Part shown: piece by piece, positions 1-53,321 of the stretch | Position numbering within the stretch: the first letter of the stretch is position 1 | Layout: each line of letters begins with the position of its first letter | Assembly: GCA_045616445.1 (NCBI GenBank) | Contig: JAZLGR010000017.1 | Coordinates: 2,202 to 66,201 of the forward strand | Reading direction: 5' to 3' | Source: Candidatus Fimousia sp. | GTDB taxonomy: Bacteria > Bacillota > Clostridia > Lachnospirales > Lachnospiraceae | Length of the DNA stretch: 64,000 nucleotides | Notes under the pieces: model-generated | Database searches by the model: none | What the model was told of the DNA's origin: nothing | The model's input: the letters and a program-made list of their open reading frames with translations, nothing else | Made by a program: the position numbers and the translations under genes

Positions 1-1391
1 TCCTTCAAAATCTCTGCACCAATATATCGTTCTCTGTCACTAAACTGGATGTCCTTCAGATAGGAAACCAGCTTTTTGATATTCATCTCACAGATTTCTG
101 TGATATTCTTCTCTCCGATGGTTACCGCAAGGGAGGTTTTCTTCAGTCGCTGTCCGTTACATGCCTTACATGGAGTGACTGACATGAAGGTTTCATATTC
201 TGCCTTCATACGTTCAGAGGATTCCTTGTAGCGGCGATAAGCATTCTCAATTAACCCTTCAAATGCTACATTATACACCCCTTCTCCTCGCTGACCGATA
301 TGATGCACCTTCACTTCATGGCCATTGGTACCATAGATGAGTATGGATCGCTGTTCTTCGGTCAGATCCTTAAATGGGGTGTCTAAACTGAAGCTGTATT
401 CATCTGCCAATGCTTTCAGCACACTGTAGGAAAATCCCTTCTTGGTTTTTACAGACTGCCATCCCAGCAGGGTGATGGCGCCCTCTGCAATGCTTAAATT
501 CCAGTCCGGAATCATCATCTCAATATCAAATTCCATCTTCTCGCCAAGTCCGGAGCACTCTGGACAGGCGCCAAATGGATTGTTAAAGGAGAAGCTTCGT
601 GGCTCAATCTCTTCCATACTGACACCGCAGTCTGGACAGGAAAAGCTGGTGCTGTAGGACAATTCTTCTCCGCCGATGATATCCAGTACAAGGAGGCCAT
701 CGGAAAGATCCATAACTGTCTCAATGGAATCGGTGAGTCGCTTCTCGATGCCTTCGCGGACCACAAGACGGTCCACAACGACTTCTATATTATGTTTCTT
801 GTTTTTATCTAAGTTAATATCCTCTGATAAATCGTAGATATTGCCATCCACACGGACACGGACATACCCACTCTTCTTCATCTGGGCAAGAAGCTTGGTA
901 TGCTGACCCTTACGCCCACGGACGATTGGCGCAAGGAGCTGGAATCTGGTACGTTCCGGCAGGCAGAGCACCGCATCCACAATCTGATCCACGGTCTGAC
1001 GGCTGATGACACGTCCGCAGTCCGGACAGTGTGGCACTCCGATGCGGGCATATAACAGTCGCAGATAATCATAAATCTCTGTTACAGTACCCACTGTGGA
1101 TCTTGGATTTCGATTGGTCGTCTTCTGGTCAATGGAGATTGCCGGAGAAAGTCCGGAGATATGCTCCACTTCCGGTTTTTCCATCTGCCCTAAGAACTGT
1201 CTCGCATAGGAAGAGAGAGATTCCATATATCGTCTCTGCCCCTCTGCATAGATGGTATCAAAGGCCAGGGAAGACTTGCCAGATCCGCTTAGGCCTGTCA
1301 TAACCACGAATTCATTCCTTGGGATTTCAATATCAATATTCTTCAGATTGTGCTCTCTGGCACCGGTAATCTTAATGATATCTTTTTTCAT
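1..1391 (-). CDS. uvrA: excinuclease ABC subunit UvrA, N-terminal ~463 codons (gene runs off left edge)
   Basis: Open to the window edge, so absent from the ORF track. Reverse translation from ATG 1391 reads MKKDIIKITGAREHNLKNIDIEIPRNEFVVMTGLSGSGKSSLAFDTIYAEGQRRYMES, the canonical UvrA N-terminus with a Walker A. It lies 43 nt downstream of uvrB. Confidence 0.93.
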   Translation of the reverse strand, partial: MKKDIIKITGAREHNLKNIDIEIPRNEFVVMTGLSGSGKSSLAFDTIYAEGQRRYMESLSSYARQFLGQMEKPEVEHISGLSPAISIDQKTTNRNPRSTVGTVTEIYDYLRLLYARIGVPHCPDCGRVISRQTVDQIVDAVLCLPERTRFQLLAPIVRGRKGQHTKLLAQMKKSGYVRVRVDGNIYDLSEDINLDKNKKHNIEVVVDRLVVREGIEKRLTDSIETVMDLSDGLLVLDIIGGEELSYSTSFSCPDCGVSMEEIEPRSFSFNNPFGACPECSGLGEKMEFDIEMMIPDWNLSIAEGAITLLGWQSVKTKKGFSYSVLKALADEYSFSLDTPFKDLTEEQRSILIYGTNGHEVKVHHIGQRGEGVYNVAFEGLIENAYRRYKESSERMKAEYETFMSVTPCKACNGQRLKKTSLAVTIGEKNITEICEMNIKKLVSYLKDIQFSDRERYIGAEILK

Positions 1392-1433
1392 GTTACTTCC
1401 TTTATCTTTATCTATATTTCTATCTCAAATATG

Positions 1434-3419
1434 CTAATTCAAATCATAGTCGCGCAGCGCAACCTTATATTCCTTCAGCTGATCACGATACATCGCAGCA
1501 TGCTCAAAATCAAGCTCGGATGCTGCCTGGTTCATCTTCTTGGTCAGCTTCTTGATCATATCGTTGAGTTCTTTCTTATTCATGGATTCCGGATCCTTTG
1601 TATCTTTCTTCGCAACCACATCCTCTGTGATGGAAATCAGGTCACGGATATCCTTCTTGATGGTCTGTGGGATGATTCCGTGTTCCTTATTATAACGGTC
1701 CTGAATCTCTCTTCTTCGTTCTGTCTCTGTAATGGCACGATACATGGAATCTGTCATGTGATCTGCATACATGATAACGCGTCCTTCAGCATTACGGGCA
1801 GCTCGCCCAATGGTCTGAACAAGGGAGGTCTCTGAACGGAGGAACCCTTCCTTGTCCGCATCTAAGATGGCAACCAGGGTAATCTCCGGAATATCCAGTC
1901 CCTCTCTTAAGAGGTTGATGCCCACCAGCACGTCAAATACACCCATACGCAAGTCACGTACAATCTCAATTCGCTCCAATGTGTCGATATCGGAGTGGAG
2001 ATACTTCACTTTGATATCCACTTCACGCATATAGTCGGTCAGATCCTCTGCCATACGCTTTGTCAGAGTGGTTACTAATACTTTGTTGCCCTTGGCAACT
2101 TCTATATTCACTTCAGAAATCAGGTCATCGATCTGTCCATCCACCGGACGCACTTCCACCTTCGGATCCAGTAATCCAGTTGGGCGGATGATCTGTTCGG
2201 CACGAAGGAGCTCATGCTCATCCTCGTACACGTTCGGTGTGGCAGATACGAATAGCATCTGATCGATCTTAGTTTCAAATTCTTCAAAATTCAGTGGACG
2301 GTTATCCAGTGCCGATGGCAGACGGAATCCATAATCCACCAATGTCTGCTTACGGGAGCGATCCCCCGCATACATACCACGCACCTGTGGCATGGTAATA
2401 TGAGATTCATCGATGATCATGAGAAAATCATCCCCGAAGAAGTCCATCAGGGTATTCGGCGTTGCTCCCGACTCTAAGCCTGCCAAGTGTCGGGAATAAT
2501 TCTCAATACCGGAACAGAATCCGGTCTCCTTCATCATCTCAATATCAAAGTTGGTTCGCTCAGCCACTCGCTGCGCTTCTAATAGCTGATCATTCTCCTT
2601 AAAGTATGCCACACGTTCCACCAGCTCTGCCTGAATGCCCTCGATGGCGTGGTTCATCTGTTCTTCCGGAACTGCATAGTGGGATGCAGGGAAGATGGCT
2701 ACAAAGCTTAAGGCGCGCTTAATCTCGCCTGTTAAGATATCGAATTCCACAATTCGGTCAATCTCATCCCCGAAGAATTCCACACGCACTGCGTCCTCAA
2801 AGGTGGAAATCGGCACAATCTCTAACACATCGCCCTTCACGCGGAAGGTTCCACGCTTAAAATCCAGCTCATTACGGATATACTGAATATTGATCAGCTG
2901 ATCAATAACCTCATCACGGTCCTTGACCATGCCCACACGAAGGGAAAGCATCATCTCTTCGTAGTTTTCACGGGCACCAATACCGTAGATGCAGGAAACA
3001 GAGGAAATGACGATGACATCACGGCGCTCGATCAGTGCTGCTGTGGCACTATGGCGCATCTTATCGATCTCATCATTGACAGAGGAGTCCTTCTCAATAT
3101 AAGTATCTGTGGAAGGAACATACGCCTCCGGCTGATAATAATCATAGTAGGATACAAAGTACTCCACCGCGTTCTCCGGGAAGAATTCCTTGAATTCACT
3201 GTATAACTGGGCTGCCAGTGTCTTATTGTGAGCCAGCACCAGGGTCGGTTTATTCAATTGTTCGATAATATTGGCCATGGTAAAGGTCTTACCAGAGCCT
3301 GTAACACCAAGCAGTGTCTCAAACTGATTCCCTTCGCGAAACCCATCCACCAGCTCTTTGATGGCCTGTGGCTGATCTCCAGTTGGCTGATATTCGGAAT
3401 GTAATACAAAATGATCCAT
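1434..3419 (-). CDS. uvrB: excinuclease ABC subunit UvrB
   Basis: Walker [10 protein letters not shown], helicase core and C-terminal UVR motif ([14 protein letters not shown]). Start moved from track 3440 to ATG 3419 ([12 protein letters not shown]) because GAGGAGG lies 7 nt upstream. Confidence 0.93.
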
Positions 3420-3492
3420 CTCTGTTCCTCCTCTGTTCATTCGTCTATTGTATAGTATAGCAAATAGATTTTATAATGTACAGATATATTTA

Positions 3493-3506
3493 CAAACAAA
3501 CGTTCG
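3493..3506 (-). promoter_or_regulatory. candidate LexA (Cheo/DinR) box upstream of uvrB
   Basis: The minus strand reads CGAACGTTTGTTTG, against the Firmicute consensus CGAAC-N4-GTTCG. One half-site has a mismatch. It lies about 75-87 nt upstream of the uvrB start. Confidence 0.5.
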
Positions 3507-3516
3507 AGTGCTTTTG

Positions 3517-4455
3517 TCAGATCATACCCCAGCTGGACAGGGTAAATACCATCAGAAAGATGGTCAGCACGCAGAAAACGGAGGTTGTCGCCACAATTTC
3601 TCCAGCCAGTTCTCCATTACCTCCCATCGCCTGCGCCATAGGACCGGAAGCCACTGCGGTTGGTGAAGCAAAAATTGCAAGAATAGCAACCAAAGCGTCC
3701 CCGCGATAACCCAGCACAATAGACAGGCCCAGCATAGTAACTGGGAAGAGAATCAATCGTCCCACATTGACTGCCAGAAGCTTCTTCAGATGTCGCACCA
3801 TGCTTCCGAAGGAGAGCATGCCACCTAAGCTTACCAGGGCAAGGGGTGTTGCGATATTACCCAGATTCGTAAGTGGTTTTGCCAGAAGCTCCGGAACGGG
3901 AATATGGAAAAATGCAAAGATAATACCCAGTACGCCCGCCTCAACCAGTGGGTTTTTGGCGATGTTTATAAGGATGGTGGAGACATTTACCTTGCCGCCA
4001 CGATTGGTTTCAAAGAGAATCACGGACAAAATATTAAACAGTGGCACGACCAGGGAAGCCATAGCGGAGACAAATGCTACGCCGCTCTCGCCACACAGTG
4101 CCATACCGATAGTTGTCCCGAAAAGTACAAAGTTACTTCGATAGATGCCCTGGACCATGGTTGCGCTGTCCGCCCGGTTCGCCACAAATCTGCGGCACAG
4201 CACCCAGGTGATGATGAATAAAACCAGCACGCTGATGCTGACGTAGGTGAAAAACACAGGCTTCACCGTCTCTCCAAGGTCTGCATCGTAGACATTAAAA
4301 AACAGGGTCAGTGGGATAAAGATGCGGAAGATCATGGTGTTCATCGCCTTAAAATGATCTACCGTCAGAATATCAAGTTTACGAATCAGTCCTCCGACTG
4401 CCATATACACAACAAATGGTACTACAACCGATGCTGCAAGAAAAAAACTTTCCAT
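3517..4455 (-). CDS. AEC family (auxin-efflux-carrier / malate-permease-like) transporter
   Basis: 312-aa polytopic membrane protein with about 10 hydrophobic segments and an AEC-like N-terminus. Paralogous in style to 14041..14985. Confidence 0.75.
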   Translation of the reverse strand: MESFFLAASVVVPFVVYMAVGGLIRKLDILTVDHFKAMNTMIFRIFIPLTLFFNVYDADLGETVKPVFFTYVSISVLVLFIITWVLCRRFVANRADSATMVQGIYRSNFVLFGTTIGMALCGESGVAFVSAMASLVVPLFNILSVILFETNRGGKVNVSTILINIAKNPLVEAGVLGIIFAFFHIPVPELLAKPLTNLGNIATPLALVSLGGMLSFGSMVRHLKKLLAVNVGRLILFPVTMLGLSIVLGYRGDALVAILAIFASPTAVASGPMAQAMGGNGELAGEIVATTSVFCVLTIFLMVFTLSSWGMI

Positions 4456-4524
4456 AGGATACCTCTTTTATATACATTTACACATTACCTAATCATAATA
4501 ATACAAAAATATAATAATGAACAG

Positions 4525-4561
4525 AAGAAAAAGGCTTACCATCATTACAATAGTAAGCCTT
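4525..4561 (-). terminator. intrinsic terminator after the S41 protease gene
   Basis: AAGGCTTAC/GTAAGCCTT stem followed by a U-run on the minus strand. Confidence 0.7.
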
Positions 4562-4574
4562 CCTGTCTCAAACA

Positions 4575-5756
4575 TTATTTTTTATTCAATTCTTCAATTG
4601 CCCGCTGGAGCTGATTGTCTTCATCCTTCTCAATCTTCACTTTCTTCTGAAGATTTTTGTCTAATTTTACCTCCACATCCGGTTTGATTCCCTTCTTGTG
4701 GATACTGCGTCCCTTCGGCGTATAATAATCAGAGATGGTAAGCTTCAGTGCGGAGCCATCGCCCATGGCCATAATATTCTGGACGATTCCTTTACCAAAA
4801 CTGGTTGTTCCAACGATGGTTCCATAGCCATAATCCTGAATTGCCCCTGTCACGATTTCTGACGCGCTGGCACTGTATTCATTGATCAGTACGACCAGTG
4901 GAACACCAAGCTCATCATCGGAAATCGCCTGGAATTCTTCCTTGGTGCCATCCTTGGTCTTTGTGGAGACGATCAGACCCGTTGGTAAAATCTTATCTGA
5001 AATACTGACTGCAGCAGAGAGCAGTCCACCCGGATTGTTTCGAAGATCCAGTACCATCTTCTCCATCCCCTGTTCACGAAGCGCTTCTAATGCTTTGTCA
5101 AACTGGTTTACGGTAACTTCGTCAAATTCGTTGATCTGAACATATCCAACCTTGCCCTTTAACATCTCGAATTCCACTGTTGGACTTTCAACCTGCTTAC
5201 GGGTAATGGTAAATGTCTTACTTTTTTTATCTCGAATAAAGTTCAGTGTTACGCTGGTGCCTTCCGGTCCTTTGATCTTGGTTACGACACTGGACAGTTC
5301 ATCTGTCGCTCCCACCTCATAATCATCGACCTTCTCCAGAATATCTCCGGTCTTTAACCCAGCTTCCTCCGCAGGACTTCCCTTGATGGTTCGAACAACT
5401 GAGATATAGCCATCGGCATCCTGCTGCAGAACAGCTCCAATCCCGGAAAATACCCCCTGGGTTTCTTCTTTCAGTGCAGTATATTCCTCTTTGGTATAGT
5501 AACAGGAATAATTTTCCTTCAGCCCTGCTACCATACCCTTGTAAATATACTCCTGCATCTGTTCCTCATCCACATCATAGAGATAGTACTTATCGATGGC
5601 TCTCTTGATCTGCATCATCTTAAAATTGCTGGCCAGTCCATTGCCGGCATTAAAGGCAAATGTCTTAAGCAGCATTCCCTCTCCAACACAAATCAGGATC
5701 AGAATGAGAATCAGCGCATCCTTTACGATATTCTTAACAGTTTTCTTGTTTCTCAT
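4575..5756 (-). CDS. S41 family C-terminal processing peptidase
   Basis: N-terminal membrane anchor, PDZ-like block GSPAEEAGLKTGDILEKVDD, and S41 catalytic blocks NEYSASASEI and TSFGKGIVQ. Confidence 0.88.
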   Translation of the reverse strand: MRNKKTVKNIVKDALILILILICVGEGMLLKTFAFNAGNGLASNFKMMQIKRAIDKYYLYDVDEEQMQEYIYKGMVAGLKENYSCYYTKEEYTALKEETQGVFSGIGAVLQQDADGYISVVRTIKGSPAEEAGLKTGDILEKVDDYEVGATDELSSVVTKIKGPEGTSVTLNFIRDKKSKTFTITRKQVESPTVEFEMLKGKVGYVQINEFDEVTVNQFDKALEALREQGMEKMVLDLRNNPGGLLSAAVSISDKILPTGLIVSTKTKDGTKEEFQAISDDELGVPLVVLINEYSASASEIVTGAIQDYGYGTIVGTTSFGKGIVQNIMAMGDGSALKLTISDYYTPKGRSIHKKGIKPDVEVKLDKNLQKKVKIEKDEDNQLQRAIEELNKK

Positions 5757-7028: not shown

Positions 7029-7742
7029 TTATTCAGATACTTCCTGTTCAAATTGCTGCCAGAATTCTGTCGAAATTCTCTCAGAACCAATCTGGAGACG
7101 CTTCTTAATCCACTTTACAATGGCAGAATCGTCCTTTTCATCCATCACGCCTTCGAAAATATGGGAAGAGATTCGCTCGGAACTGATGAAGAGCTTGGTT
7201 CCCAGATTCTCCATATGATTCAGCAGAAGTTTCATCTGCTTTTCAAGTGGAACTGCTGGAAGCACCAGATCCGGAAGATATCCGTTAATCTTATTCACCA
7301 GGGCTTCTAATCCCTCTTCGCTGTCTTTATCATAGGCAAGACTTCGAATATCTATGCCATCATAGTCATACTGAAGATATGCATGGGCTTTCTCACACTG
7401 TTCTTCTGTCTCACAAAGTACGCACACCATCTTCTTATTCTTAGCCATGGACTGCAGAAGTGCATCTAAATAGTCTTCCATATATCTGCCTTCCTGATTC
7501 ATGGCAATGGCTTTCTCAATATCATGATCTCCTGGTAATACCAGGTCTGCGCTTTTTACGAATTTCTGTGTTTCTTCTGATTTCTTGCTTTCTAATGCCA
7601 GCTTTGCTCCCGCCAGCAAAACAAAGTTAAAATAATCGTTATTCACATAACTTTGGGATATTTCAACTGCACGTGAAACAGAAACAGCATCTACGGTCAT
7701 CCCTAATACGGGCACCAATTCATAGTTGTTCTGATTTTCCAT
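7029..7742 (-). CDS. WecB/TagA/CpsF-like protein, apparently degenerate
   Basis: Follows the family template (VPVLGMTVDAVS..., PDLVLPAVPLEKQ in place of the usual PD-IL-VGLG-PKQE) but with substitutions at conserved positions. ATG 7742 is preferred over the track TTG 7766. Confidence 0.5.
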   Translation of the reverse strand: MENQNNYELVPVLGMTVDAVSVSRAVEISQSYVNNDYFNFVLLAGAKLALESKKSEETQKFVKSADLVLPGDHDIEKAIAMNQEGRYMEDYLDALLQSMAKNKKMVCVLCETEEQCEKAHAYLQYDYDGIDIRSLAYDKDSEEGLEALVNKINGYLPDLVLPAVPLEKQMKLLLNHMENLGTKLFISSERISSHIFEGVMDEKDDSAIVKWIKKRLQIGSERISTEFWQQFEQEVSE

Positions 7743-7787
7743 AGTGTATTTGAGCTCCTTTGTCAAGTAAACACAGATGCTATCGGA

Positions 7788-8714
7788 TTAATCTTCTTCT
7801 GCTTCCGTAGAACCTGTACCAGTCATGCTGCTTACAGACTTACCAACTGTATTGCCTTCTACAATATCATTGATGAGGTCTTTTGCTGCATCGATGTCTG
7901 CTTCAAATGCACTTCCATTGAGTGTACCTTCTAAACTAACCACATAGATATCTTCTGGTTTTAATTCAGAAGCGATGTCTACATACATGGAGATATCACT
8001 GTATTCAAGATCAGAGGATCCGTTCTTGTAGATTGTCTTTACATATTCAGCAAGTTTTTCCTTGTCTGTATCTTTGAAGATAGATGCCACATAACCAGCG
8101 ATGAAGTTTTCTGCACCTTCGATAAATGCTGTATCTGTAGATTCATCATACATTCCCTTACCGGATAATACACCCCAGGACTGGTTACCGTTCATAGTTG
8201 TTTCTCCAGCTTCCATATTAACCTTCATCTGGTTCATATCACGGAAGGATACTGGGTAAGGAAGAGTCGCTGTGAAGGAGTTACCTTCGTTGATCAGGTT
8301 AACAAATGCTTCCTGGTCAAAATCTTCGTAACCGGAAATTGTTACATTGTATGCGTTCTGGATGTTGTTGACAACCTTCTTCATACTTTCGCCGTTGCCT
8401 TCTGCATCATATTCAAAAAGGTCAGAATCCGGTCTCATACATATGATTGTCATCTTCTTATTCTTTGTGTCAAACACTCGGAGTGCAACGAAATCACCAA
8501 CACGGATACAGGTTACATACTGATCCTTAATGGATGCTGCTAATTCCTCTGCTTCTTTTTTTGCTGCTGCTTCTTTTTCAGCCTTGAATTTATGAGTGAA
8601 AAATGTCTTGGATCCAAAGTAGGATGCGCCCCCTGCGATGACGATTACTAAAAGGGCTGCAATGATACGGATCAATGGATTTTTCTTCTTTGCTTTGTTT
8701 TCTGGTTTGCTCAA
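7788..8714 (-). CDS. membrane-anchored extracytoplasmic protein, weakly LytR/CpsA/Psr (LCP)-like
   Basis: Lys-rich N-terminus plus a single TM (LIRIIAALLVIVIAGGASYF). The AAAGGAG SD sits 9 nt before TTG 8714. The LCP-like order of blocks is only loosely recognisable. Confidence 0.4.
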   Translation of the reverse strand: MSKPENKAKKKNPLIRIIAALLVIVIAGGASYFGSKTFFTHKFKAEKEAAAKKEAEELAASIKDQYVTCIRVGDFVALRVFDTKNKKMTIICMRPDSDLFEYDAEGNGESMKKVVNNIQNAYNVTISGYEDFDQEAFVNLINEGNSFTATLPYPVSFRDMNQMKVNMEAGETTMNGNQSWGVLSGKGMYDESTDTAFIEGAENFIAGYVASIFKDTDKEKLAEYVKTIYKNGSSDLEYSDISMYVDIASELKPEDIYVVSLEGTLNGSAFEADIDAAKDLINDIVEGNTVGKSVSSMTGTGSTEAEED

Positions 8715-40255: not shown

Positions 40256-40391
40256 TCAAAATGATTATACACTATAATAGCATTAATTGATGGACACTTC
40301 AAGGATTGACTTTATTTTTCTATATTTTATACTATGTATAGACATACAATGCACACATTGTTTATATGAATATAGAAAAAGGGGTGTTACC

Positions 40392-40883
40392 ATGAATTAT
40401 CATAATATCACAAAAGATGATATGTTAAACGGCGACGGTCTCCGTGTTGTATTATGGACGGCCGGCTGTACTCATAAATGCAAAAACTGTCAGAATCCAA
40501 TTACCTGGGATATTAAAGGCGGGCTCCCATTTGACGAAGCTGCGAAGGAAGAAATCTTCACAGAGCTTGCCAAGGACTATGTGTCTGGATTAACTCTCTC
40601 CGGCGGTGATCCGCTCCATCCAGCAAACTGCCAGGCAGTAACAGATCTTTCTGCTCAGGTAAAAGAGTTATTCCCTTCAAAGACAATCTGGCTTTACACT
40701 GGATTTGACTGGGATGAGATCAGCACACTTCCGATCCTGTCCTACGTTGACGTCGTTGTTGATGGCAATTATATCGATGAACTCTCCGACACCAAGCTTC
40801 ACTGGCGCGGCAGCTCCAATCAGCACGTCATCGATGTGAAAAAATCCTTAGAAGAAGGTACTATTGTACTTCACTGTCAGTAG
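40392..40883 (+). CDS. nrdG: anaerobic ribonucleotide reductase activating protein (radical SAM)
   Basis: MNYHNITKDDMLNGDGLRVVLWTAGCTHKCKNCQNP. Start ATG 40392 behind AAAAGGGGTG; the track start 40287 lies in the promoter region. Confidence 0.9.
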   Translation: MNYHNITKDDMLNGDGLRVVLWTAGCTHKCKNCQNPITWDIKGGLPFDEAAKEEIFTELAKDYVSGLTLSGGDPLHPANCQAVTDLSAQVKELFPSKTIWLYTGFDWDEISTLPILSYVDVVVDGNYIDELSDTKLHWRGSSNQHVIDVKKSLEEGTIVLHCQ

Positions 40884-41265
40884 GCGTATAATCAGCACTC
40901 CCAAAAGGGAGTGCTTCTTTTTTTATCTCTACACTGATGCTCTGCTTCTTCTGATCCGGGCTTCTGTAACACTGCGTCACCTTCACCTGAAACATCCCCA
41001 ACAGACGGCTGGTCAAACCATATTCCGCTTTCAGGTCTCCCTCTGATGAAATCTCTTCCGATAACATCCATTCGAAATAGTCTCTCATCTCCCGATTGCT
41101 CATAAATCCATAGTTCTGATTCATGCAAAGGGTCTGGTCCACACAGTGGGAAACCACCTCATAGAGGTCAACCTCCCTCACCATGCGGGCAGACAGATTC
41201 ATATTGATATAAGCTCCGTAGATGATCAGCAGTAGAAAAGAAAATCCTAATACCAGTTGTTTCAA
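40861..41265 (-). CDS. Tad-locus protein, N-terminally membrane-anchored (TadE/TadG-like role inferred)
   Basis: 134 aa with N-terminal hydrophobic segment LVLGFSFLLLIIYGAYI. Last gene of the tightly packed operon. Its 3' end overlaps nrdG by 23 nt. Confidence 0.55.
   Translation of the reverse strand: MKQLVLGFSFLLLIIYGAYINMNLSARMVREVDLYEVVSHCVDQTLCMNQNYGFMSNREMRDYFEWMLSEEISSEGDLKAEYGLTSRLLGMFQVKVTQCYRSPDQKKQSISVEIKKEALPFGSADYTPTDSEVQ
40894..40925 (+). terminator. intrinsic terminator of nrdG (lies inside the last Tad-locus ORF)
   Basis: AGCACTCCC/GGGAGTGCT stem with an AAAA loop, followed by TCTTTTTTTT. Confidence 0.8.
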
Positions 41266-41275
41266 GTCTTATCTC

Positions 41276-41434
41276 TTATCCCGCTGCACCGGACTGGGCA
41301 AAGAACACTGACATAATATTCGTCAGCGCATCCTGCAGCTGCGGCGCAAAGGACTTAGATGCAAAGGCACAAATTGCCAGAACAATAATAACCGTTACAA
41401 CAACCGATCCATATTCCGCTACAAATTCTCTCAA
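41276..41434 (-). CDS. Flp-like mini-pilin 3 (52 aa)
   Basis: Absent from the track. The TTG start is 1 nt after the stop of the upstream gene, with AAAGGGG 7 nt upstream. Translation: MREFVAEYGSVVVTVIIVLAICAFASKSFAPQLQDALTNIMSVFFAQSGAAG. Confidence 0.6.
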   Translation of the reverse strand: MREFVAEYGSVVVTVIIVLAICAFASKSFAPQLQDALTNIMSVFFAQSGAAG

Positions 41435-41435
41435 A

Positions 41436-41798
41436 TTATATCCCCTTTCTTAATACTGAATATCCCACAACAGAATATTCTTTCGTTTCTTTCAAAAATG
41501 GCAGTGTGACGTGGTAAGTCAGGATCACCTGTGCCATGGGCTTCCCATCCCTCTCAAACCGTTTGGTAGAAAGTCCATAGTGGGCCCGTCTGGCTTCCTC
41601 TTCAAATTTCCTGCAGTTTTCCTCGGCATAATCCGAGTGTTCTAGCATGGACACCACCCTGTGGTGATACTGCTTAGCTGTCCCGACTGTCACAGCCGCA
41701 GCATAGACGGAAAATACCAGATTGACCCCGGCCACGATCAGTATCAGGCTGACTGCCATCTCTATCCCAATTCTCATACTCCTTCTCCCTGGATGCAT
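41436..41798 (-). CDS. Tad-locus protein, N-terminally membrane-anchored (pseudopilin/TadE-like role inferred)
   Basis: 120-aa ORF with hydrophobic segment IEMAVSLILIVAGVNLVFSVYAAAV. An alternative and better SD-supported start is ATG 41777 (MRIGIEM). Confidence 0.55.
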   Translation of the reverse strand: MHPGRRSMRIGIEMAVSLILIVAGVNLVFSVYAAAVTVGTAKQYHHRVVSMLEHSDYAEENCRKFEEEARRAHYGLSTKRFERDGKPMAQVILTYHVTLPFLKETKEYSVVGYSVLRKGI

Positions 41799-41808
41799 CC
41801 TTCTATTC

Positions 41809-42123
41809 TTAGTGCGTATATCCGGAGATTCCCTGCTTCATGACAAATCCAATCACAGGCAGGCTGACACGGTAACGAAGACTGACGAATGCGTCATCTC
41901 CCTCCTTCGCCACATAGATCTCATAGCCCTCCTTTATGCCTCTTTCGCAGACTTTGTCGATGACGTTCTCCCCGCAGTTCCCTTCTTCTAGTGTTTCGAT
42001 CACTTCCCGGTAGGTATGCCATGCGCGGTAGGTATCCACGCATATGCCATTCATCCCCACCATCAGGGTAAACAGGAATAACAGCAGAGAAAAGCCCGTC
42101 AGCACCGAGATCGGCAGCTTCAT
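41809..42123 (-). CDS. Tad-locus protein, N-terminally membrane-anchored
   Basis: 104 aa with N-terminal LPISVLTGFSLLLFLFTLMVGM. The ATG is 3 nt after the stop of mini-pilin 2. Confidence 0.55.
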   Translation of the reverse strand: MKLPISVLTGFSLLLFLFTLMVGMNGICVDTYRAWHTYREVIETLEEGNCGENVIDKVCERGIKEGYEIYVAKEGDDAFVSLRYRVSLPVIGFVMKQGISGYTH

Positions 42124-42126
42124 CTG

Positions 42127-42267
42127 TTATAACCCGCACAGTCCGGCGATAAAGTACTTCTCTACCACGCCAAAAATCGACATCAGCCTGTAGATTCCGC
42201 CAATTATGCCAGTTCCAATCAGAACTGCTGCCACGTATGCACCATATTCATCCAGTAACATCTTCAA
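42127..42267 (-). CDS. Flp-like mini-pilin 2 (46 aa from TTG 42267; 44 aa from ATG 42261)
   Basis: Absent from the track. GGAG lies 8 nt before the TTG. Translation: MKMLLDEYGAYVAAVLIGTGIIGGIYRLMSIFGVVEKYFIAGLCGL. Confidence 0.6.
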   Translation of the reverse strand: MKMLLDEYGAYVAAVLIGTGIIGGIYRLMSIFGVVEKYFIAGLCGL

Positions 42268-42287
42268 ATTCTCATCTCCAAAAAAAA

Positions 42288-42392
42288 TCAAAACAACGAC
42301 AATCCGGCCAGTACACGGTATCCTTCCACAATGGCCAGTGCGACGATAAAGAAAAAGATCGTCTCTCCATACATCTCAAAAAATGTCTTCAT
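42288..42392 (-). CDS. Flp-like mini-pilin 1 (34 aa)
   Basis: Absent from the track. The ATG overlaps the stop of the platform gene (ATGA). Translation: MKTFFEMYGETIFFFIVALAIVEGYRVLAGLSLF. Confidence 0.55.
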   Translation of the reverse strand: MKTFFEMYGETIFFFIVALAIVEGYRVLAGLSLF

Positions 42393-43738
42393 AAATTACT
42401 CCACAACTGAAACATCACGACAAATAGTACCGACATATCCATCATAATCTTGGCAGTGCCCAAAAACATGGGCATAAAAAAGAGAAATCCATAGGTTCCC
42501 AGCTCATCATCATTCTCCAGGCGTTCTGCCCGGTCTGTGAGAATGATATTGCGCTGCATGATTGCGCCCAGCTGAGTCTGGGCATCTTCTGTCCCCGTGT
42601 TGGTATAAGCATAGATCATCTTCATGGTGGAATGTACCTCCGGCACCGAAAGCTCCTTTAAAAAGTGATTATATGGCTTTATGGATACCGGATCCTCCAT
42701 AATCTCTTCTAACAGCCGGTTCATATCCACCTTCATCACCTCCGGCGTATCCGGAAGTGCTTCCAACAGACAGCGGTAAACATTATCTGAAGATAAGCGC
42801 AGGGTCATGGTACGGAGCCATCTTGGAAACTGCTTCTCCACTTCCCGCTCCAGGCGCTTCTTCGCCCTTGGATACTGGAGTGGATTGGCTCTCACATGAT
42901 TCCAGTCTTTCGCCATCTCTTCCTTCTTCATCGCCTTTGTTACGCCAAACCAGCTACCTCGCAGCTTCACCTGAGTGATGATATATAATGAATAGAATAA
43001 GAGGTATAAAAGGGTAGATGCCAACTGATATGGTGTACCCGCGAGGGGTGCACGCATAGCATCATTCTGGGTCAGCACGCGAAACAGGATGGTACAAAGG
43101 CCAAGAACAGCAAACATACTCAGTTCAATCTTCTTCTGCATCTGTCTGCGTTCCTTCTGGAAGAGATAAACCCTCTCCTTATAAAGCTTCAGATCTTCGA
43201 TCAGGGTGAATAACGCCCCCTGATACCGTCCGCCGAAGGCCTCCACACGGATAAAGAAATCATGCATGATCTTAAGCCGCTCACAGGGATATCTCTTCTC
43301 AAATCTGCGAAACACCCTCTCATAGGACAGGTCTTCCTCAGCGAATACTGCGTCGATCATTCCACTAATCTCCTCATGCAGCTGCCCTTCTGTGGCTTCA
43401 CAAACCTCCTCCAGGGCAGAAATAATCTTCGGATGCTTGCTAAATGCATACATCATCTGCTCCATATACTCTGTAACCATTGAAAAAAGGGATTGTTCGA
43501 ACAAATATCGAAACTGTTGAATAATAATGAAGGGAGTCATGATTACAATCGCACCGAGCAGGATGAAGATTCCTCCCATGGCCAGATAATTCAGCTTGCC
43601 AAGAAGTATGACCAACAGCATGGAGAGTATCAGCCGAAGCAGATAGCTCTTCAGGGAATAATGGAACCCATATTCCTCGATTCTTGTCGCTAAATGCTTA
43701 AAACGAATAGAACGGAATATAGATACCATGCTTCTCAA
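42389..43738 (-). CDS. two-domain GspF/PilC/TadB-TadC-like pilus platform membrane protein
   Basis: 449 aa with two successive units, each a cytoplasmic helical bundle plus TM helices. The second unit starts near QFPRWLRTMTLRLSSDNVYRCLLEALPDTPE, which fits the T2SSF template. It overlaps the ATPase gene by 41 nt. Confidence 0.7.
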   Translation of the reverse strand: MRSMVSIFRSIRFKHLATRIEEYGFHYSLKSYLLRLILSMLLVILLGKLNYLAMGGIFILLGAIVIMTPFIIIQQFRYLFEQSLFSMVTEYMEQMMYAFSKHPKIISALEEVCEATEGQLHEEISGMIDAVFAEEDLSYERVFRRFEKRYPCERLKIMHDFFIRVEAFGGRYQGALFTLIEDLKLYKERVYLFQKERRQMQKKIELSMFAVLGLCTILFRVLTQNDAMRAPLAGTPYQLASTLLYLLFYSLYIITQVKLRGSWFGVTKAMKKEEMAKDWNHVRANPLQYPRAKKRLEREVEKQFPRWLRTMTLRLSSDNVYRCLLEALPDTPEVMKVDMNRLLEEIMEDPVSIKPYNHFLKELSVPEVHSTMKMIYAYTNTGTEDAQTQLGAIMQRNIILTDRAERLENDDELGTYGFLFFMPMFLGTAKIMMDMSVLFVVMFQLWSNL

Positions 43739-44657
43739 ATTTCTCCCGGAGATTCTCTGGAAGATTGATCAGATTCATCTCATCTTCGTCGCACAAGATA
43801 CGTACCTGGCCTGTCACCTTGTCAAATGCACCGATCTGGGCGATAAACCGACTATGATCCCGCCTCTGACAGACCATAATGGCTATGTCAAGAAAGCCAA
43901 ATACGTCTCTTCGAATTCGCTCTGCAGTCAGACTGTCTGCTACCATATTGACAATACGGTCCGGTATCTTGCGCACATCATCGGTATGGACGGTAGTAAT
44001 ACAGTAATGTCCCGTGGTCAGGGATTCCATCAGATGTCTCACTTCATCTCCCCTCGCTTCCGAGAGTAGAATCCAGTCCGGCATCTGTCTCAAACTGGCC
44101 TTGATCGCCTGGGTATAGGTAAAATGATTCTCATCTACCTTCAGTTCCACACTGTCCCTGTCTGGATGAATGCTGCTAAAATGGATCTCTAAATTATCTT
44201 CAATGGTAATGACACGGTCACGCTCCGGAATATAATTGGTCAGAAATTTCAGTAACTCTGTCTTACCGCTTCCTGTCTGTCCGCAGATGACGATATTCAT
44301 ATGTGCCATGACGCACTGCTTCAGAAAATCCAGTTCCTGCTGGCTGCAATAGCACTGTGATATTAAGTTTTCTTCTTTTAGTCGTTGAATTGGTGGTGAT
44401 TTTCGAATAGAAATAGATCTACCACTCCTTGCATAGGCCTCATGAATGATAGAAATCCTCAAGCCGTTAGCCTCCGCCTCCAAGAGTGGCATATGCTTGT
44501 TGAAATTAAGACTGACAACATTGCTTACGTGGGAAGTAAACTGATTGATAAATGCTGTCTCTAAGAAAATGTCAGGAGAATATCTCCCCTTCGTCAGATG
44601 TTCGATCCAGAGCCTCCGCCCATTCCAGTTAATGTCGGTGATTTCCTCGTCCATCAC
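43698..44657 (-). CDS. CpaF/TadA/VirB11-type secretion ATPase (short form); coding region probably extends to about 44708
   Basis: Walker A GQTGSGKT, Asp box VITIEDNLE, Walker B DWILLSEARG, His box ITTVHTDD. The in-frame upstream sequence YLSEEQFGPLYPFV looks like the conserved GPL-x-P-L motif, but no ATG/GTG/TTG is available there. Confidence 0.8.
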   Translation of the reverse strand: MMDEEITDINWNGRRLWIEHLTKGRYSPDIFLETAFINQFTSHVSNVVSLNFNKHMPLLEAEANGLRISIIHEAYARSGRSISIRKSPPIQRLKEENLISQCYCSQQELDFLKQCVMAHMNIVICGQTGSGKTELLKFLTNYIPERDRVITIEDNLEIHFSSIHPDRDSVELKVDENHFTYTQAIKASLRQMPDWILLSEARGDEVRHLMESLTTGHYCITTVHTDDVRKIPDRIVNMVADSLTAERIRRDVFGFLDIAIMVCQRRDHSRFIAQIGAFDKVTGQVRILCDEDEMNLINLPENLREKFEKHGIYIPFYSF

Positions 44658-44740
44658 AAAGGGATAAAGGGGACCAAACTGTTCCTCCGATAAATAGTAA
44701 TTTGTTATATAACCTTCCTCCTTTCTCTTGATATGGTACT

Positions 44741-44769
44741 ATTATACCTATATTGGTAATTACTGTCAA
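44741..44769 (-). promoter_or_regulatory. consensus sigma-A type promoter of the Tad-like operon
   Basis: The minus strand reads TTGACA (44769..44764), an exact 17-nt spacer and TATAAT (44746..44741). GGAGG SD lies at 44721..44717. Confidence 0.7.
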
Positions 44770-44772
44770 TTA

Positions 44773-44814
44773 TAAAAAAGAAAAAATTGCACACCCTAAG
44801 GCAGAGTGTGCAAT
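44773..44814 (-). terminator. intrinsic terminator after the aminotransferase gene
   Basis: ATTGCACAC/GTGTGCAAT stem followed by a long U-run. It ends 4 nt upstream of the Tad promoter -35. Confidence 0.8.
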
Positions 44815-44844
44815 CCTACTTCTATTTCTATTTTATCCTCTTAA

Positions 44845-46029
44845 TTACTGCAACTTTTCAAGTGCGATTCTCATACGCTTTAATCCCTCTTCCAGATTTT
44901 CCATGGAGTTTGGATAAGCAATACGAATCGTATTCGGTGCCCAGAAGGCTTTGCCAGGCATGAGAGCGATTTTGGCTTCATTTAACAAATAGTTAGAGAA
45001 GTCAACGGAGTCTTTGATGATCATGCCGTCTGCTTCTTTGCCATAGTAGCTGGATACATCAGCCATAACATAGAAGGCGCCGCCTGGTTTGACACAGGAA
45101 ATACCTGGAATCTGGCTTAAGGTTTCATATACATAATCACGACGACGTTCGAATTCTTCGTGCATTTCTGCGATAAATTCTTTGCCGCTTCGTAATGCTT
45201 CCACTGCTGCCCACTGTACAAATGTGGTGGAGTTGGAAGTCATATGGCTCTGCAGTGCAGCAATTCCTTTGGCAACAGGTTTTGGTGCTGCAGTATAGCC
45301 TACACGCCATCCAGTCATCGCGTGGGATTTGGATAATCCATTTACCACGATGCTGTGTTCATAGATGTCATCGCCTAAGGATGCCACGCAGACATGGACA
45401 TTGCCATCGTAGATCAGTGTTTCGTATACTTCGTCAGCAATCACATAAAAATCATGTTCCACAGCAAGATTGCCAAGACGAAGAAGGGACTCTCTGGTGT
45501 AGCATGCGCCGGTTGGGTTGTTCGGTGTATCGATGATGATTCCCTTGGTTTTATCTGTCAGAACGCCTTCGATCAGATCAAGATCCAGCTGGAAATATTC
45601 ATCGGTATCTACCAATACAGGAGTGCCACCTGCTAATTTGATCATCTCCACGTAGCTTACCCAGCATGGAGTAGGCACGATGATCTCATCTCCCGGGTCA
45701 CAGATTGCCATGAGGGAATTAAAAACCGCCTGTTTTGCCCCTGTGGAGATACAAATCTGATCCGGGTCATAGTGGACCTGGTTGTCTCTTAACAGCTTTT
45801 CACAAATCGCTTCCTTCAATGTGGCAACACCGGTTACTGGTGCGTACTTTGTCTTACCTTCATCGAGCGCTTTCTTACATGCCTCTCTGACAATCTCCGG
45901 AGTAATAAAATCCGGTTCTCCTACGTTAAAGGAGATAATATCTTCTCCCGCTTCGCGAAGCTTGGCAACACGGTCAAACAATGCGTTGGTTGCGGATGGT
46001 TCCATATTTAAAATTCTCTGTGATAACAT
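44845..46029 (-). CDS. pyridoxal-phosphate-dependent aminotransferase (aspartate aminotransferase-like, class I)
   Basis: Class I fold motifs NPTG and SKSHAMTGWRVGY (PLP lysine). Start ATG 46029, 8 nt after AAGGAG; the track GTG is at 46038. Confidence 0.88.
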   Translation of the reverse strand: MLSQRILNMEPSATNALFDRVAKLREAGEDIISFNVGEPDFITPEIVREACKKALDEGKTKYAPVTGVATLKEAICEKLLRDNQVHYDPDQICISTGAKQAVFNSLMAICDPGDEIIVPTPCWVSYVEMIKLAGGTPVLVDTDEYFQLDLDLIEGVLTDKTKGIIIDTPNNPTGACYTRESLLRLGNLAVEHDFYVIADEVYETLIYDGNVHVCVASLGDDIYEHSIVVNGLSKSHAMTGWRVGYTAAPKPVAKGIAALQSHMTSNSTTFVQWAAVEALRSGKEFIAEMHEEFERRRDYVYETLSQIPGISCVKPGGAFYVMADVSSYYGKEADGMIIKDSVDFSNYLLNEAKIALMPGKAFWAPNTIRIAYPNSMENLEEGLKRMRIALEKLQ

Positions 46030-46161
46030 TCCTATCACTCCTTATCTGTTTATTCTAATTCTACGCATCTCTAAAATGAAATATGGAATATTATACCACA
46101 AAAGTTTATTATTATACCACTTTCTTTTATAATAAAAAGACTTATTATAATGAATCAGGGC

Positions 46162-52679: not shown

Positions 52680-53321
52680 TTAAATGTTTTTTGCGCAGAT
52701 ATCATTGAGGCAGCAGCGGTCGCAGTATGGCTTTGTTCTGGCCGTGCAAATGTCTCTGCCATGGTATACCAGTCTGTGGCAAAAATCGGAGCCCTTCTCA
52801 GGCGGTACGATCTTCCATAATGCCATCTCTACTTTCTTCGGATCCTTGATGCCGTCCACTAAACCGATGCGGTTGGTAAGGCGAATACAGTGGGTATCTG
52901 TTACGATGGCAGGCTCCCCGAATACGTCTCCCATAATTAAATTGGCACTTTTTCTTCCCACTCCCGGAAGCTTCATCAGATCGTTAAAGTTGTCTGGCAC
53001 CTTGCTGCCGAATTCATCCCGAAGCATGCGCATACATTTGCTGATGTCTCGTGCCTTGCTACGGCCAAGACCGCATGGACGGACGATGGCTTCGATCTCG
53101 TTCACATCTGCTTCTGCCAAGGCATCTACCGTTGGGAATTTTTCATATAAATAAGGAACAATCTTGTTCACCCGCTCGTCGGTGCACTGGGCTGCAAGGC
53201 GGACACTGATGAGTAATTTCCAGGCATCATCATAGTCTAAGGTGCAGTCTGCCAGTGGATATTCCTGTTCTAATCGGTTGATCACTTCTATGGTTAATTC
53301 TTTTAATTTCTTTTCTGTCAT
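52680..53321 (-). CDS. nth: endonuclease III
   Basis: HhH-GPD block LPGVGRKSANLIM and the 4Fe-4S cluster motif C-x6-C-x2-C-x5-C at the C-terminus. Confidence 0.92.
   Translation of the reverse strand: MTEKKLKELTIEVINRLEQEYPLADCTLDYDDAWKLLISVRLAAQCTDERVNKIVPYLYEKFPTVDALAEADVNEIEAIVRPCGLGRSKARDISKCMRMLRDEFGSKVPDNFNDLMKLPGVGRKSANLIMGDVFGEPAIVTDTHCIRLTNRIGLVDGIKDPKKVEMALWKIVPPEKGSDFCHRLVYHGRDICTARTKPYCDRCCLNDICAKNI

Follow-up and report, generated by a model that had tools for sequence, protein, structure and literature searches.

A Tad-like operon of gut Lachnospiraceae with candidate pilins that appear to be made without a leader

What defines the prepilins of type IV filaments is a class III signal peptide, whose short leader 'invariably ends with Gly or Ala' and has to be cut off by a prepilin peptidase before the subunits can assemble (PMC10191384). 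The leader is hydrophilic and precedes about 20 apolar residues, often with Glu5. The prepilin peptidase has been reconstructed as part of the ancestral machine, and its gene often lies apart from the filament locus and is shared between systems (PMC6668835). When searching the literature on leaderless pilins, peptidase-independent pili and Tad systems in Lachnospiraceae and Clostridia, we found no description of a system that dispenses with this step. Here we describe an operon of Candidatus Fimousia sp., a monoderm gut member of the Lachnospiraceae. To the reading that it specifies a type IV filament of a Tad-like (type IVc-like) kind, with pilins synthesised in an essentially mature form, we give a probability of roughly 60%.

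The operon lies on the minus strand of the window (the whole 64,000-nucleotide stretch that was analysed), from about 44769 to 40861, and encodes an ATPase, a candidate platform protein and six small proteins that combine an M-[KR] start with a membrane helix. Pfam and NCBIfam scans of these eight proteins gave matches for the ATPase only. The putative promoter (44769..44741, minus strand) consists of TTGACA and TATAAT separated by a 17-nt spacer, a pattern match only, with 12 of 12 consensus positions. It is located just downstream of a terminator-like hairpin (44817..44783) of the upstream aminotransferase gene. In the clade of the window the operon has a chromosomal location, with conserved synteny from an aminotransferase gene on one side to nrdG on the other.

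The first gene encodes a secretion ATPase of the CpaF/TadA/VirB11 family (44708..43698, minus strand; Pfam T2SSE, E 4.9e-31). The listed reading frame (44657..43698) begins with GTG and encodes 319 aa. Because the frame continues upstream of this GTG and there encodes the conserved N-terminal residues SEEQFGPLYPF, the true start is probably an ATA codon at 44708, 8 nt after GGAGG; this codon and its Shine-Dalgarno site are conserved in the orthologous locus L001. The best PDB matches were CpaF (8rkd, E 9e-24), followed by VirB11 and FlaI, whereas the match to TIGR03819 (TadA family; 1.7e-29) was below the cut-off of the model. NCBI names the orthologues 'CpaF/VirB11 family protein'. As judged from these sequence comparisons, the ATPase is related to CpaF, the motor of the Tad pilus.

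The second gene (43738..42389, minus strand) encodes a polytopic membrane protein of 449 aa, the candidate platform, for which no Pfam, NCBIfam or PDB sequence match was obtained. Its full-length homologue in L009 (36% identity) scores 26.9 bits against Pfam T2SSF, above the gathering cut-off of 25.2, and T2SSF is matched by 3 of the 16 members of this platform family. The AF2 model of the 449-aa protein (pLDDT 78, pTM 0.71) consists of helices throughout, namely transmembrane (TM) helices and two helical bundles on the cytoplasmic side. A Foldseek search of the PDB with this model gave nothing significant, all-helical queries being unspecific and full-length platform structures few, and hhalign of the N-terminal against the C-terminal half detected no internal repeat. 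The link of the family to T2SSF via L009 suggests that the 449-aa protein is a very divergent T2SSF-type platform.

A sequence-only reading of this DNA had claimed three mini-ORFs for near-leaderless pilins in the operon, and we found all three where it placed them, each with a Shine-Dalgarno site. Mini-ORF A (42392..42288, minus strand; 34 aa, MKTFFEMYGETIFFFIVALAIVEGYRVLAGLSLF) encodes MKTFFEMYG and a TM helix. Its ATG start overlaps (ATGA) the stop codon of the gene for the 449-aa protein and is preceded by GGAG 6 nt upstream. Mini-ORF B (42267..42127, minus strand; 46 aa, MKMLLDEYGAYV...) starts with TTG, 8 nt after GGAG, and encodes MKMLLDEYG, a TM helix and a short C-terminal helix that ends in Cys-Gly. 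Mini-ORF D (41434..41276, minus strand; 52 aa, MREFVAEYGSVVV...) starts with TTG as well, 1 nt past the preceding stop codon and 7 nt after AAAGGGG. Its product has the N-terminus MREFVAEYGSVVVTVIIVLA..., ends in SG and is the most conserved of the pilin-like set. The start positions given earlier were thus correct, but two of the three start codons in the window are TTG and not ATG. Both are ATG at the same codon in L001, and the start of B is also ATG in L002, L003 and L005-L008. Moreover, a Shine-Dalgarno site was present 5-9 nt upstream in all 33 orthologous genes of the window and eight genome loci, and in most of these 33 an in-frame stop was found 0-6 codons upstream with no alternative start codon. 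Taken across orthologues, these data confirm the start codons of the mini-ORFs.

In A, B and D alike, Tyr-Gly occupies residues 8-9, as had been noticed, and is followed by 12-17 apolar residues. A stricter form of the motif had no match in 100 first-order Markov randomisations of the window. Conservation of the frames, which had been proposed as a check, was borne out: the three mini-ORFs are kept in every related locus that was examined (17 loci), with pN far below pS (0.31 vs 0.77 for family A, 0.43 vs 0.74 for B and 0.22 vs 0.72 for D). Synonymous sites are saturated in all three families, non-synonymous sites are not, and by this measure the mini-ORFs are under purifying selection. Mini-ORF A is kept in L001-L010, L013 and L022-L025, while family D is present in two to three tandem copies, or as a gene upstream of the ATPase gene, in L009, L010, L013 and L022-L024. 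The mini-ORFs had been called unannotated. The small proteins of the window indeed carry no family annotation, but some orthologues have public 'hypothetical protein' entries, so the frames are not universally uncalled. Upstream-extended frames, seen in L002, L003 and L006 (family A) and in a few others, were discarded, as they overlap the platform gene, have no Shine-Dalgarno site and are not conserved.

The remaining three small proteins are candidate minor pilins. The 104-aa protein (42123..41809, minus strand; MKLPISVLTG...) has a TM helix and an alpha/beta head, gave no Pfam match and aligns as a paralogue of the 113-aa family. The 113-aa protein (41777..41436, minus strand; MRIGIEMAV..., with Glu6) is TadE-like in its N-terminal pattern. 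With a two-paralogue alignment as input, its AF2 model (pLDDT 82) has a 46-residue N-terminal helix (2-47), a helix at 52-64 and a three-stranded antiparallel sheet, a predicted lollipop-like architecture. Foldseek found no PDB match for it at E<0.01, helix-on-sheet queries being unspecific. The 134-aa protein (41265..40861, minus strand; MKQLVLGFSFLLLIIYG...) is encoded by the last gene of the operon and has an N-terminal TM segment and a globular domain. It is kept at the same position in eight of eight genome loci and in L009, L010 and L022-L024, and had no family match in Pfam or NCBIfam. These companions begin with M-[KR]-x3-E or with M-[KR] and a TM helix. In related loci, the N-terminal pilin module also occurs as part of larger proteins, joined to Ig-like, LRR or other domains, as in family C (~160 aa), the 374-aa protein of L022 and the 298-aa protein P0182; family C is not represented in the window. 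Just downstream, related loci also encode very large surface proteins.

We examined whether a leader exists anywhere in the family. Relatives of the ATPase at E<=1e-20 form about 1,600 clusters, and all sampled loci were taken from the 120 closest. Met1, Glu6/7 and Gly9 are the constant features throughout the family: Tyr-Gly at residues 8-9 is kept in the window and the eight closest loci, and even the farthest relatives still have Glu7 and Gly9. Gly9 is replaced by Ala in one sequence only and is followed by about 15-20 apolar residues. The Lys/Arg reported at position 2 holds for the window and most relatives, but gives way to G, N, T, H, Q or E in some. A word-indexed search for close relatives returned 33 matches; the 28 sequences that were read start with M-x-x-F-x-x-[EDN]-Y-G, except for P0031, which is one miscalled upstream extension. 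In an exhaustive HMM search of 1.84 billion protein representatives, the first position of the 52-aa pilin profile fell on residue 1 of each of the 31 true homologues, and no leader was found in any of them. Orthologues with longer, Gly-containing leaders, which the sequence-only reading had named as evidence against itself, therefore did not turn up in this search. The register is also unchanged in the more distant loci L009-L013 and L022-L025, including one with a platform of only 28% identity. Two residues precede the mature-like N-terminus, and the position directly before it is K, R, G, N or T. Of the parts of a class III signal peptide, the window pilins have the apolar helix and Glu6/7 and no leader; they fall under the formal definition only if M-K-x4-E-Y-G itself is counted as the leader. 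A phage-borne system was considered because prophage tail genes neighbour L011/L012. Viral contigs, when scanned, yielded one locus only, and we therefore do not regard the system as a phage feature.

When the profile of family D was aligned with eight annotated canonical Flp pilins, hhalign gave an E value of 2.8e-5 and a probability of 74%. The alignment pairs E7-Y8-G9 of D with E19-Y20-G21 of Flp, which is E5-Y6-G7 of the mature pilin, and it extends through the C-terminal part. It scores 27.4, whereas 200 column shuffles averaged 8.9 and never exceeded 16.6 (z ~9). These profile data indicate a remote homology between family D and mature Flp, with the two EYG motifs in register. Together with the absence of a leader in the homologues, this supports the earlier impression of already-mature Flp pilins. 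The Flp_Fap search that had been suggested alongside came out negative, as none of the 45 pilin-like proteins matched at E<=10. Pfam scans of the same 45 proteins gave no match to Flp_Fap (PF04964), TadE, N_methyl or Class_IIIsignal, and NCBIfam pilin models matched none of the pilin-like operon proteins. One of the 45, a D-family orthologue, matched Flp1_like (PF16982) over 44 of 49 positions (E 0.0044), with 16.9 bits below the gathering threshold of 33.5. Solved structures gave only chance matches to the D-family profile, and likewise to that of the platform. On its sequence, D is thus a Flp-like candidate major pilin, and A appears to be a leaderless pilin-like protein with little beyond the alpha1-N segment.

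Pfam Peptidase_A24 was not detected among the called genes of eight related loci, and no GxGDxK-type ORF was present in 283 kb (the 64-kb window and the loci). The missing peptidase gene had been taken to fit mature pilins. It is indeed missing from all loci examined, but this carries little weight on its own, given how often a prepilin peptidase serves several systems from a gene outside the locus (PMC6668835). The proteins might accordingly be ordinary prepilins with a nine-residue class III leader, M-K-x-F-L-E-E-Y-G, that is cut after Gly9 by a ComC- or TadV-like peptidase encoded elsewhere, a reading that we consider unlikely. Most Firmicutes carry ComC. Mature pilins would then begin at the apolar helix, without Glu5. 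Since M-K-x-F-L-E-E-Y-G plus about 20 apolar residues fits the formal class III definition (PMC10191384), such cleavage is possible, and the near-invariance of Gly9 and the apolar residues after it are in line with it. F4-L5-E-E-x-G is also loosely similar to F-L-[RK]-D-E-S-G, with which canonical Flp leaders end. Peptidases are shared across systems, and all MSH loci are without one (PMC6668835). However, the profile alignment places the EYG of D on that of mature Flp and not on the leader, and runs on into the C-terminal part. In addition, residues 1-9 are better conserved than any other part of the D family across clusters with <50% mutual identity. The 104-, 113- and 134-aa families have the M-[KR] start and Glu6 in common with it but offer no counterpart of Gly9 behind a hydrophilic stretch, so that no single cleavage rule can fit all the proteins. 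The putative leader would moreover be net neutral or acidic, as in L025 (MEEFLSEHG), and no A24 peptidase gene accompanies it in any locus examined. Such a charge also speaks against our own reading, since the positive-inside rule would not favour the N-in orientation for an N-terminus of this kind.

For the leaderless filament that we favour, we infer the following topology, assembly and function. A single sigma-70 promoter would drive the genes for the ATPase, the platform, A, B, the 104-aa and 113-aa proteins, D and the 134-aa protein. The pilin-like proteins would insert with the N-terminus inside, leaving only Met-Lys/Arg on the cytoplasmic side. As there would be no leader to remove, a prepilin peptidase step would be unnecessary. 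The CpaF-like hexameric ATPase would extract and polymerise the subunits via the T2SSF-like platform. The bulk of the fibre would be the 52-aa Flp-like protein D, whereas A, B and the three proteins with alpha/beta heads would act as minor or priming pilins. Glu6/7 would take the role of the canonical Glu5 and neutralise the N-terminal amine (or Lys2) in the fibre core. Because modules in related loci carry Ig-like and LRR fusions and large surface proteins are encoded downstream, adhesion, presumably in the gut, is the probable function.

A further reading, which we regard as improbable, is that no filament is formed: the small proteins would be accessory membrane subunits of a CpaF/VirB11-type machine for secretion or conjugative transfer, or the copy in the window would be decaying. 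VirB11 is almost as good a match to the ATPase as CpaF, and the L022 locus lies directly downstream of genes for a TraG/VirD4 coupling protein and a DUF3801 protein, which suggests a conjugative element. In the window, the ATPase has no canonical start at the orthologous position and the platform has no detectable T2SSF match. On the other hand, an ATPase, a T2SSF-type platform and several proteins with an N-terminal Glu-bearing helix are the defining gene set of type IV filaments, and D is related to Flp. This reading is also at odds with purifying selection on all small frames, with the consensus promoter and with the probable ATA start, which is conserved together with its Shine-Dalgarno site in L001. 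The chromosomal, syntenic position of the window clade between the aminotransferase gene and nrdG likewise argues against it.

Very improbable, in our view, is that another enzyme replaces the prepilin peptidase, namely a CPBP/Rce1-like intramembrane protease, encoded in the operon of some relatives and possibly elsewhere in this genome, that trims the N-terminal M-K or the C-terminal tail. An Rce1-like gene (PF02517) stands between pilin-like genes in L007, L008, L009 and L011/L012, so some processing may occur there, and the D tails in these loci are longer and apolar (SGANSSFIFLG, SGAIGSLIM) compared to those of the window clade (SGAAG, SGAIHK). However, the operons of the window, its six closest loci, L010, L013, L022 and L024 have no such gene, and L013 and L022 have long C-terminal tails without it. 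CPBP genes are also commonly immunity genes or encode unrelated membrane proteins, and we found no link to pilins in the literature. Finally, a spoIIIA operon was considered, as it too combines an ATPase with small membrane proteins, and was dismissed because its gene order is different and no operon protein matched an NCBIfam spoIIIA model.

If the operon does encode a leaderless filament, leader cleavage is not mechanistically required for pilin extraction and polymerisation, and the system offers a natural test of the purpose of the leader and of N-terminal methylation. The chances seem to us evenly balanced that a whole clade in gut Lachnospiraceae and Clostridia has mature-form pilins and has done away with both the class III signal peptide and the prepilin peptidase, in which case the superfamily would have its first member that works independently of this enzyme. 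Less likely extensions are that the operon-encoded CPBP/Rce1-like protease of Anaerostipes-type loci took over a new, possibly C-terminal, pilin maturation, and that some copies on conjugative elements are mating pili of Gram-positive bacteria. The carriers are abundant gut commensals, including Anaerostipes, Ca. Fimousia, Robinsoniella and Ruminococcus-like Lachnospiraceae. PilFind, SignalP SPIII, the MacSyFinder TFF models and Pfam would all miss this widespread candidate pilus family, whose loci now appear as 'hypothetical proteins' beside a 'CpaF/VirB11 family' ATPase.

Among known systems, Tad/Flp (type IVc) is the closest. No solved protein is closer to the ATPase than CpaF, and the pilins of about 50 aa share E-Y-G at the start of the apolar helix and an amphipathic C-terminal part. 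In many relatives a pilin gene lies upstream of the ATPase gene, as canonical flp does, and several pseudopilin-like genes follow the platform gene. In contrast to Tad, the pilins described here have no leader and no Gly at -1, with Met and one residue before the mature-like N-terminus, and no locus carries a TadV/A24 gene. A single platform of 449-550 aa, barely recognisable as T2SSF, stands in place of the TadB and TadC pair; TadZ/CpaE, RcpC/CpaB and a secretin are absent, and the Flp_Fap and TadE models of Pfam match none of the pilin-like proteins. The 104-, 113- and 134-aa proteins are analogous to TadE/TadF only in position and architecture. The Flp1_like pilins of Firmicutes and Archaea and the archaeal class III pilins are likewise small monoderm pilins with a minimal ATPase and platform, but the match to Flp1_like is sub-threshold and the window proteins have no [KR]-G/A cleavage site. 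MSH pili (PMC6668835) also have a type IV filament locus without a peptidase gene; their pilins keep a normal leader and borrow the peptidase of another system, whereas here the leader itself is absent. The known modular pilins of monoderms, for example PilB and PilC of Streptococcus sanguinis (PMC10191384), carry cleavable leaders, unlike the proteins described here, but share with related loci the fusion of the N-terminal module to extra domains, which by analogy suggests the display of adhesins on the fibre.

The three mini-ORFs A, B and D, first spotted by hand translation, are real genes. A word-indexed search of 5.8 billion proteins gave 18 relatives of the membrane protein encoded beside them ('platform'), all from Lachnospiraceae, and a scan with one genome per species yielded eight loci, belonging to Lachnospiraceae MAGs, Ca. 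Fimousia, Anaerostipes sp. 992a and A. hominis. A, B and D were present in unchanged order in all eight. A Shine-Dalgarno sequence precedes the start by 5-9 nt in every orthologue, and the related locus L001 carries ATG at the same codon where B and D of the window start with TTG. Synonymous sites were saturated (pS 0.72-0.77 across A, B and D), with non-synonymous differences far below this level (pN 0.22 for D, 0.31 for A and 0.43 for B), showing that the reading frames are conserved and under constraint. In most orthologues, an in-frame stop lies 0-6 codons upstream of the start with no alternative start, so that an N-terminal extension is physically impossible in those loci. Randomised windows contained no motif matches. 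One further match of the motif scan, at position 52705 of the window (plus strand), where an ORF starts with MRQQRSQYGFVLAVQMSLPWY, is followed by a weakly apolar segment in an unrelated ORF context and is probably a chance match.

The genes belong to a compact minus-strand transcription unit, flanked by an aminotransferase gene (46038..44845) on one side and by the convergent nrdG/nrdD genes on the other, in which neighbouring genes overlap or are separated by few bases. The aminotransferase gene has a terminator-like hairpin (44817..44783), after which comes the putative operon promoter, a pattern match to the perfect sigma-70 consensus (TTGACA-17-TATAAT; 44769..44741, minus strand). The minus strand then encodes a secretion ATPase (319 aa, listed as 44657..43698), the platform (449 aa, 43738..42389), A (34 aa, 42392..42288), B (46 aa, 42267..42127), a 104-aa protein (42123..41809), a 113-aa protein (41777..41436), D (52 aa, 41434..41276) and, as the last gene, a 134-aa protein (41265..40861). 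The signals described in the sequence-only reading were all found in place: the ATGA overlap of the platform gene with A, the GGAG of B and the AAAGGGG of D (8 and 7 nt upstream of the respective starts) and the 1-nt gap between D and the preceding stop. The 3′ end of the 134-aa gene shares 23 nt with that of nrdG (40287..40883), and a palindromic terminator-like hairpin (40894-40915) sits within its ORF.

In direct family scans of the pilin-like proteins, the NCBIfam pilin, TadE and Flp_Fap models, the last of which the sequence-only reading had proposed as a check, gave no match, and formal Flp/Tad family membership therefore fails. When a 30-sequence D alignment was compared by hhalign with eight genes annotated 'Flp family type IVb pilin' (plasmid records), the two families aligned with 74% probability (E 2.8e-5) over 35 columns, reaching into the amphipathic C-terminal part. 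The score of 27.4 stands against 14.9 for the reversed alignment and, when the columns of the Flp alignment were shuffled 200 times, a mean of 8.9 (sd 2.0) and a maximum of 16.6. Independently, one D orthologue matched Pfam Flp1_like over 44 of 49 positions, below threshold (E 0.0044). The hhalign support for a relationship between D and Flp is significant but modest, as is expected with 50-residue, largely apolar proteins. The alignment pairs E7-Y8-G9 of D with E19-Y20-G21 of Flp, which are E5-Y6-G7 of mature Flp (cleavage G↓ATAIEYG). In this register Met1 and residue 2 of D represent the last two positions of the Flp leader and residue 3 is +1, in agreement with the earlier proposal that A, B and D are near-leaderless and resemble already-mature Flp pilins.

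A word-indexed search with the D profile gave 33 hits. The 28 inspected as sequences begin with M-[KRG]-x-F-x-x-[EDN]-Y-G, except P0031, a database homologue with a miscalled upstream extension. An exhaustive HMMER search of 1.84 billion cluster representatives returned 33 proteins at E ≤ 1e-3, two of which were discarded as repetitive, unrelated proteins. In all 31 remaining matches profile position 1 is residue 1 of the protein, and leader-bearing orthologues, which would speak against the near-leaderless register, were absent from these homologues. Position 2 is K in most and also R, G, N or T, with H, Q or E in families A-C of distant loci; the M-[KR] start noted at first is thus common, but a positive charge is not essential. 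Constant across the relatives are Met1, a Glu at position 6 or 7 and Gly9.

Alternatively, the first nine residues could be a leader that is cleaved after Gly9 by a peptidase encoded elsewhere. Such an N-terminus fits the formal SPIII definition (PMC10191384), and prepilin peptidases can be common to several systems (PMC6668835). However, the EYG of D aligns with that of mature Flp, residues 1-9 are the most conserved segment, the putative leader is acidic or neutral, and the 104-, 113- and 134-aa companions have no comparable site. We consider this alternative unlikely and favour pilins that are made without a leader.

All six proteins encoded 3′ of the platform gene in the window begin with M-[KR], and a membrane helix follows immediately. 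Position 6 is Glu in the 113-aa family (MRIGIEMAV in the window, MKLGIETMI, MRLAVETFV; MKGTIEFFL in the related locus L022), which is paralogous to the 104-aa protein. The model of the 113-aa protein (pLDDT 82) combines an N-terminal helix of 46 residues with a second helix and a sheet of three strands, a predicted lollipop-like architecture, and gave no significant Foldseek match. A further family, C (~160 aa), in which the MKxxxxEYG plus helix module is joined to a domain with weak Ig-like matches, was found in six of the eight genome loci and several other loci. Longer versions of the module are a 374-aa protein with LRR repeats in L022 and the 298-aa database homologue P0182.

The ATPase carries a T2SSE domain. 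Among solved structures it came closest to CpaF, the motor of the Tad pilus (9e-24), with VirB11 and archaeal FlaI next. With the L001 orthologue as query, 1,606 clusters were found at E ≤ 1e-20, many of them ~50% identical (Robinsoniella, Ruminococcus sp. OA3, Clostridium sp. and a cluster labelled Hungatella hathewayi by NCBI). At the orthologous start the window has no ATG, GTG or TTG (44657-44724, minus strand), and codons for the conserved N-terminal residues SEEQFGPLYPF lie in frame before the first canonical start (GTG, 44657). At this 5′ end the window has TTA where L001 has TTG, and in both an in-frame ATA (44708 in the window) lies 8 nt after GGAGG. Translation probably begins at this conserved, non-canonical ATA; otherwise the window ATPase would be N-terminally truncated. 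The window platform had no match in Pfam, NCBIfam or PDB. Its AF2 model, in which TM helices alternate with two cytoplasmic helical bundles, is confident (pLDDT 78, pTM 0.71), and Foldseek gave nothing significant. The L009 platform (36% identical, full length) passes the Pfam T2SSF gathering threshold (26.9 vs 25.2 bits), and T2SSF was matched by three of 16 family members, suggesting a transitive T2SSF affiliation of the window platform. We regard it as improbable that the operon is decaying or serves a purpose other than filament assembly.

The sampled ATPase neighbourhoods L010-L013 and L022-L025 all contain genes for the ATPase, for a platform of 450-550 aa and for three to six pilin-like proteins with M-x-x-[FILM]-x-x-[EQT]-[YHAL]-G at the N-terminus. 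The D-type gene often lies 5′ of the ATPase gene, like flp in tad loci, or occurs in two to three tandem copies; near-identical copies are found in L009 (three, 7601-8284) and L010 (two, 7371-7801). L009 has no ATPase gene beside its platform gene. Called genes of the sampled loci gave no Peptidase_A24 match, and a GxGDxK motif scan of the window and all loci (283 kb) gave no prepilin peptidase candidate. A CPBP/Rce1-like intramembrane protease gene (PF02517) lies between pilin-like genes only in Anaerostipes-type loci and L009, not in the window clade (L007 8237-8926; L008 8235-8909; L009 5625-6248; L011/L012 11303-11977); its product possibly acts in pilin processing or immunity, but this distribution makes it very doubtful that such a protease processes the proteins described here. 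In loci with this gene the C-terminal tail of D is longer and apolar (SGANSSFIFLG, SGAIGSLIM vs SGAAG or SGAIHK), a correlation that is not strict, as long tails also occur in L013 and L022, which lack the gene.

In L022 (2029-5888), genes for a DUF3801 protein and a coupling protein of TraG/VirD4 type (T4SS-DNA_transf, TraG-D_C) directly precede the pilus operon. This Robinsoniella-type copy is apparently part of a conjugative element, which makes a Gram-positive pilus with a role in mating conceivable. Upstream of the pilin gene, L013 (7197-7631) and L022 (5950-6432) encode a protein of 144-160 aa whose N-terminus is coiled-coil-like and whose C-terminus resembles sigma-70 region 4/ArpU; it has no equivalent in the window and may be a dedicated transcriptional activator. 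The Anaerostipes-type operon of L011/L012 adjoins siphovirus tail genes (1-4927; PhageMin_Tail, Sipho_tail, Sipho_Gp37); since a scan of 2.9 million viral contigs gave a single related locus, L025, this adjacency looks incidental. Many relatives encode very large predicted surface proteins (872 to >2500 aa; LRR_5, RicinB_lectin_2/Flg_new or no domain) at the operon end or a few kb past it (L002 9336-11963; L004 9310-11928; L009 12148-17003; L011 13287-17047; L013 12352-15969; L022 11998-15056); these may be adhesins that the system secretes or displays. In the window nrdG comes next instead.

We propose that the subunits would insert N-in/C-out with essentially no cytoplasmic leader, would not need a prepilin peptidase and would be polymerised by the CpaF-like ATPase and the platform. 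D would be the major subunit, because it is the most conserved, has a flp-like position and occurs in tandem copies, with A, B and the 104-, 113- and 134-aa proteins as minor or priming pilins and Glu6/7 in place of Glu5. The adhesin-like fusions, together with the large surface proteins that several relatives encode downstream, make adhesion the likeliest function. The canonical Flp sequence is ...R-F-L-R-D-E-S-G↓A-T-A-I-E-Y-G-L-I. Speculatively, in-frame loss of R-D-E-S-G-A-T-A would leave ...F-L-I-E-Y-G-L-I, close to M-K-x-F-L-E-E-Y-G-L-I.

Neither leaderless type IV pilins nor loci of this type are described in the literature searched, and truly unprocessed N-termini would surprise specialists. 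Tad/Flp systems differ in having a leader with Gly at -1, Flp_Fap or TadE matches, TadZ, a peptidase gene in the locus and a TadB and TadC pair, where the locus described here has a single platform gene. The system described here would work in the manner of Tad/Flp pili, to which it is distantly related.
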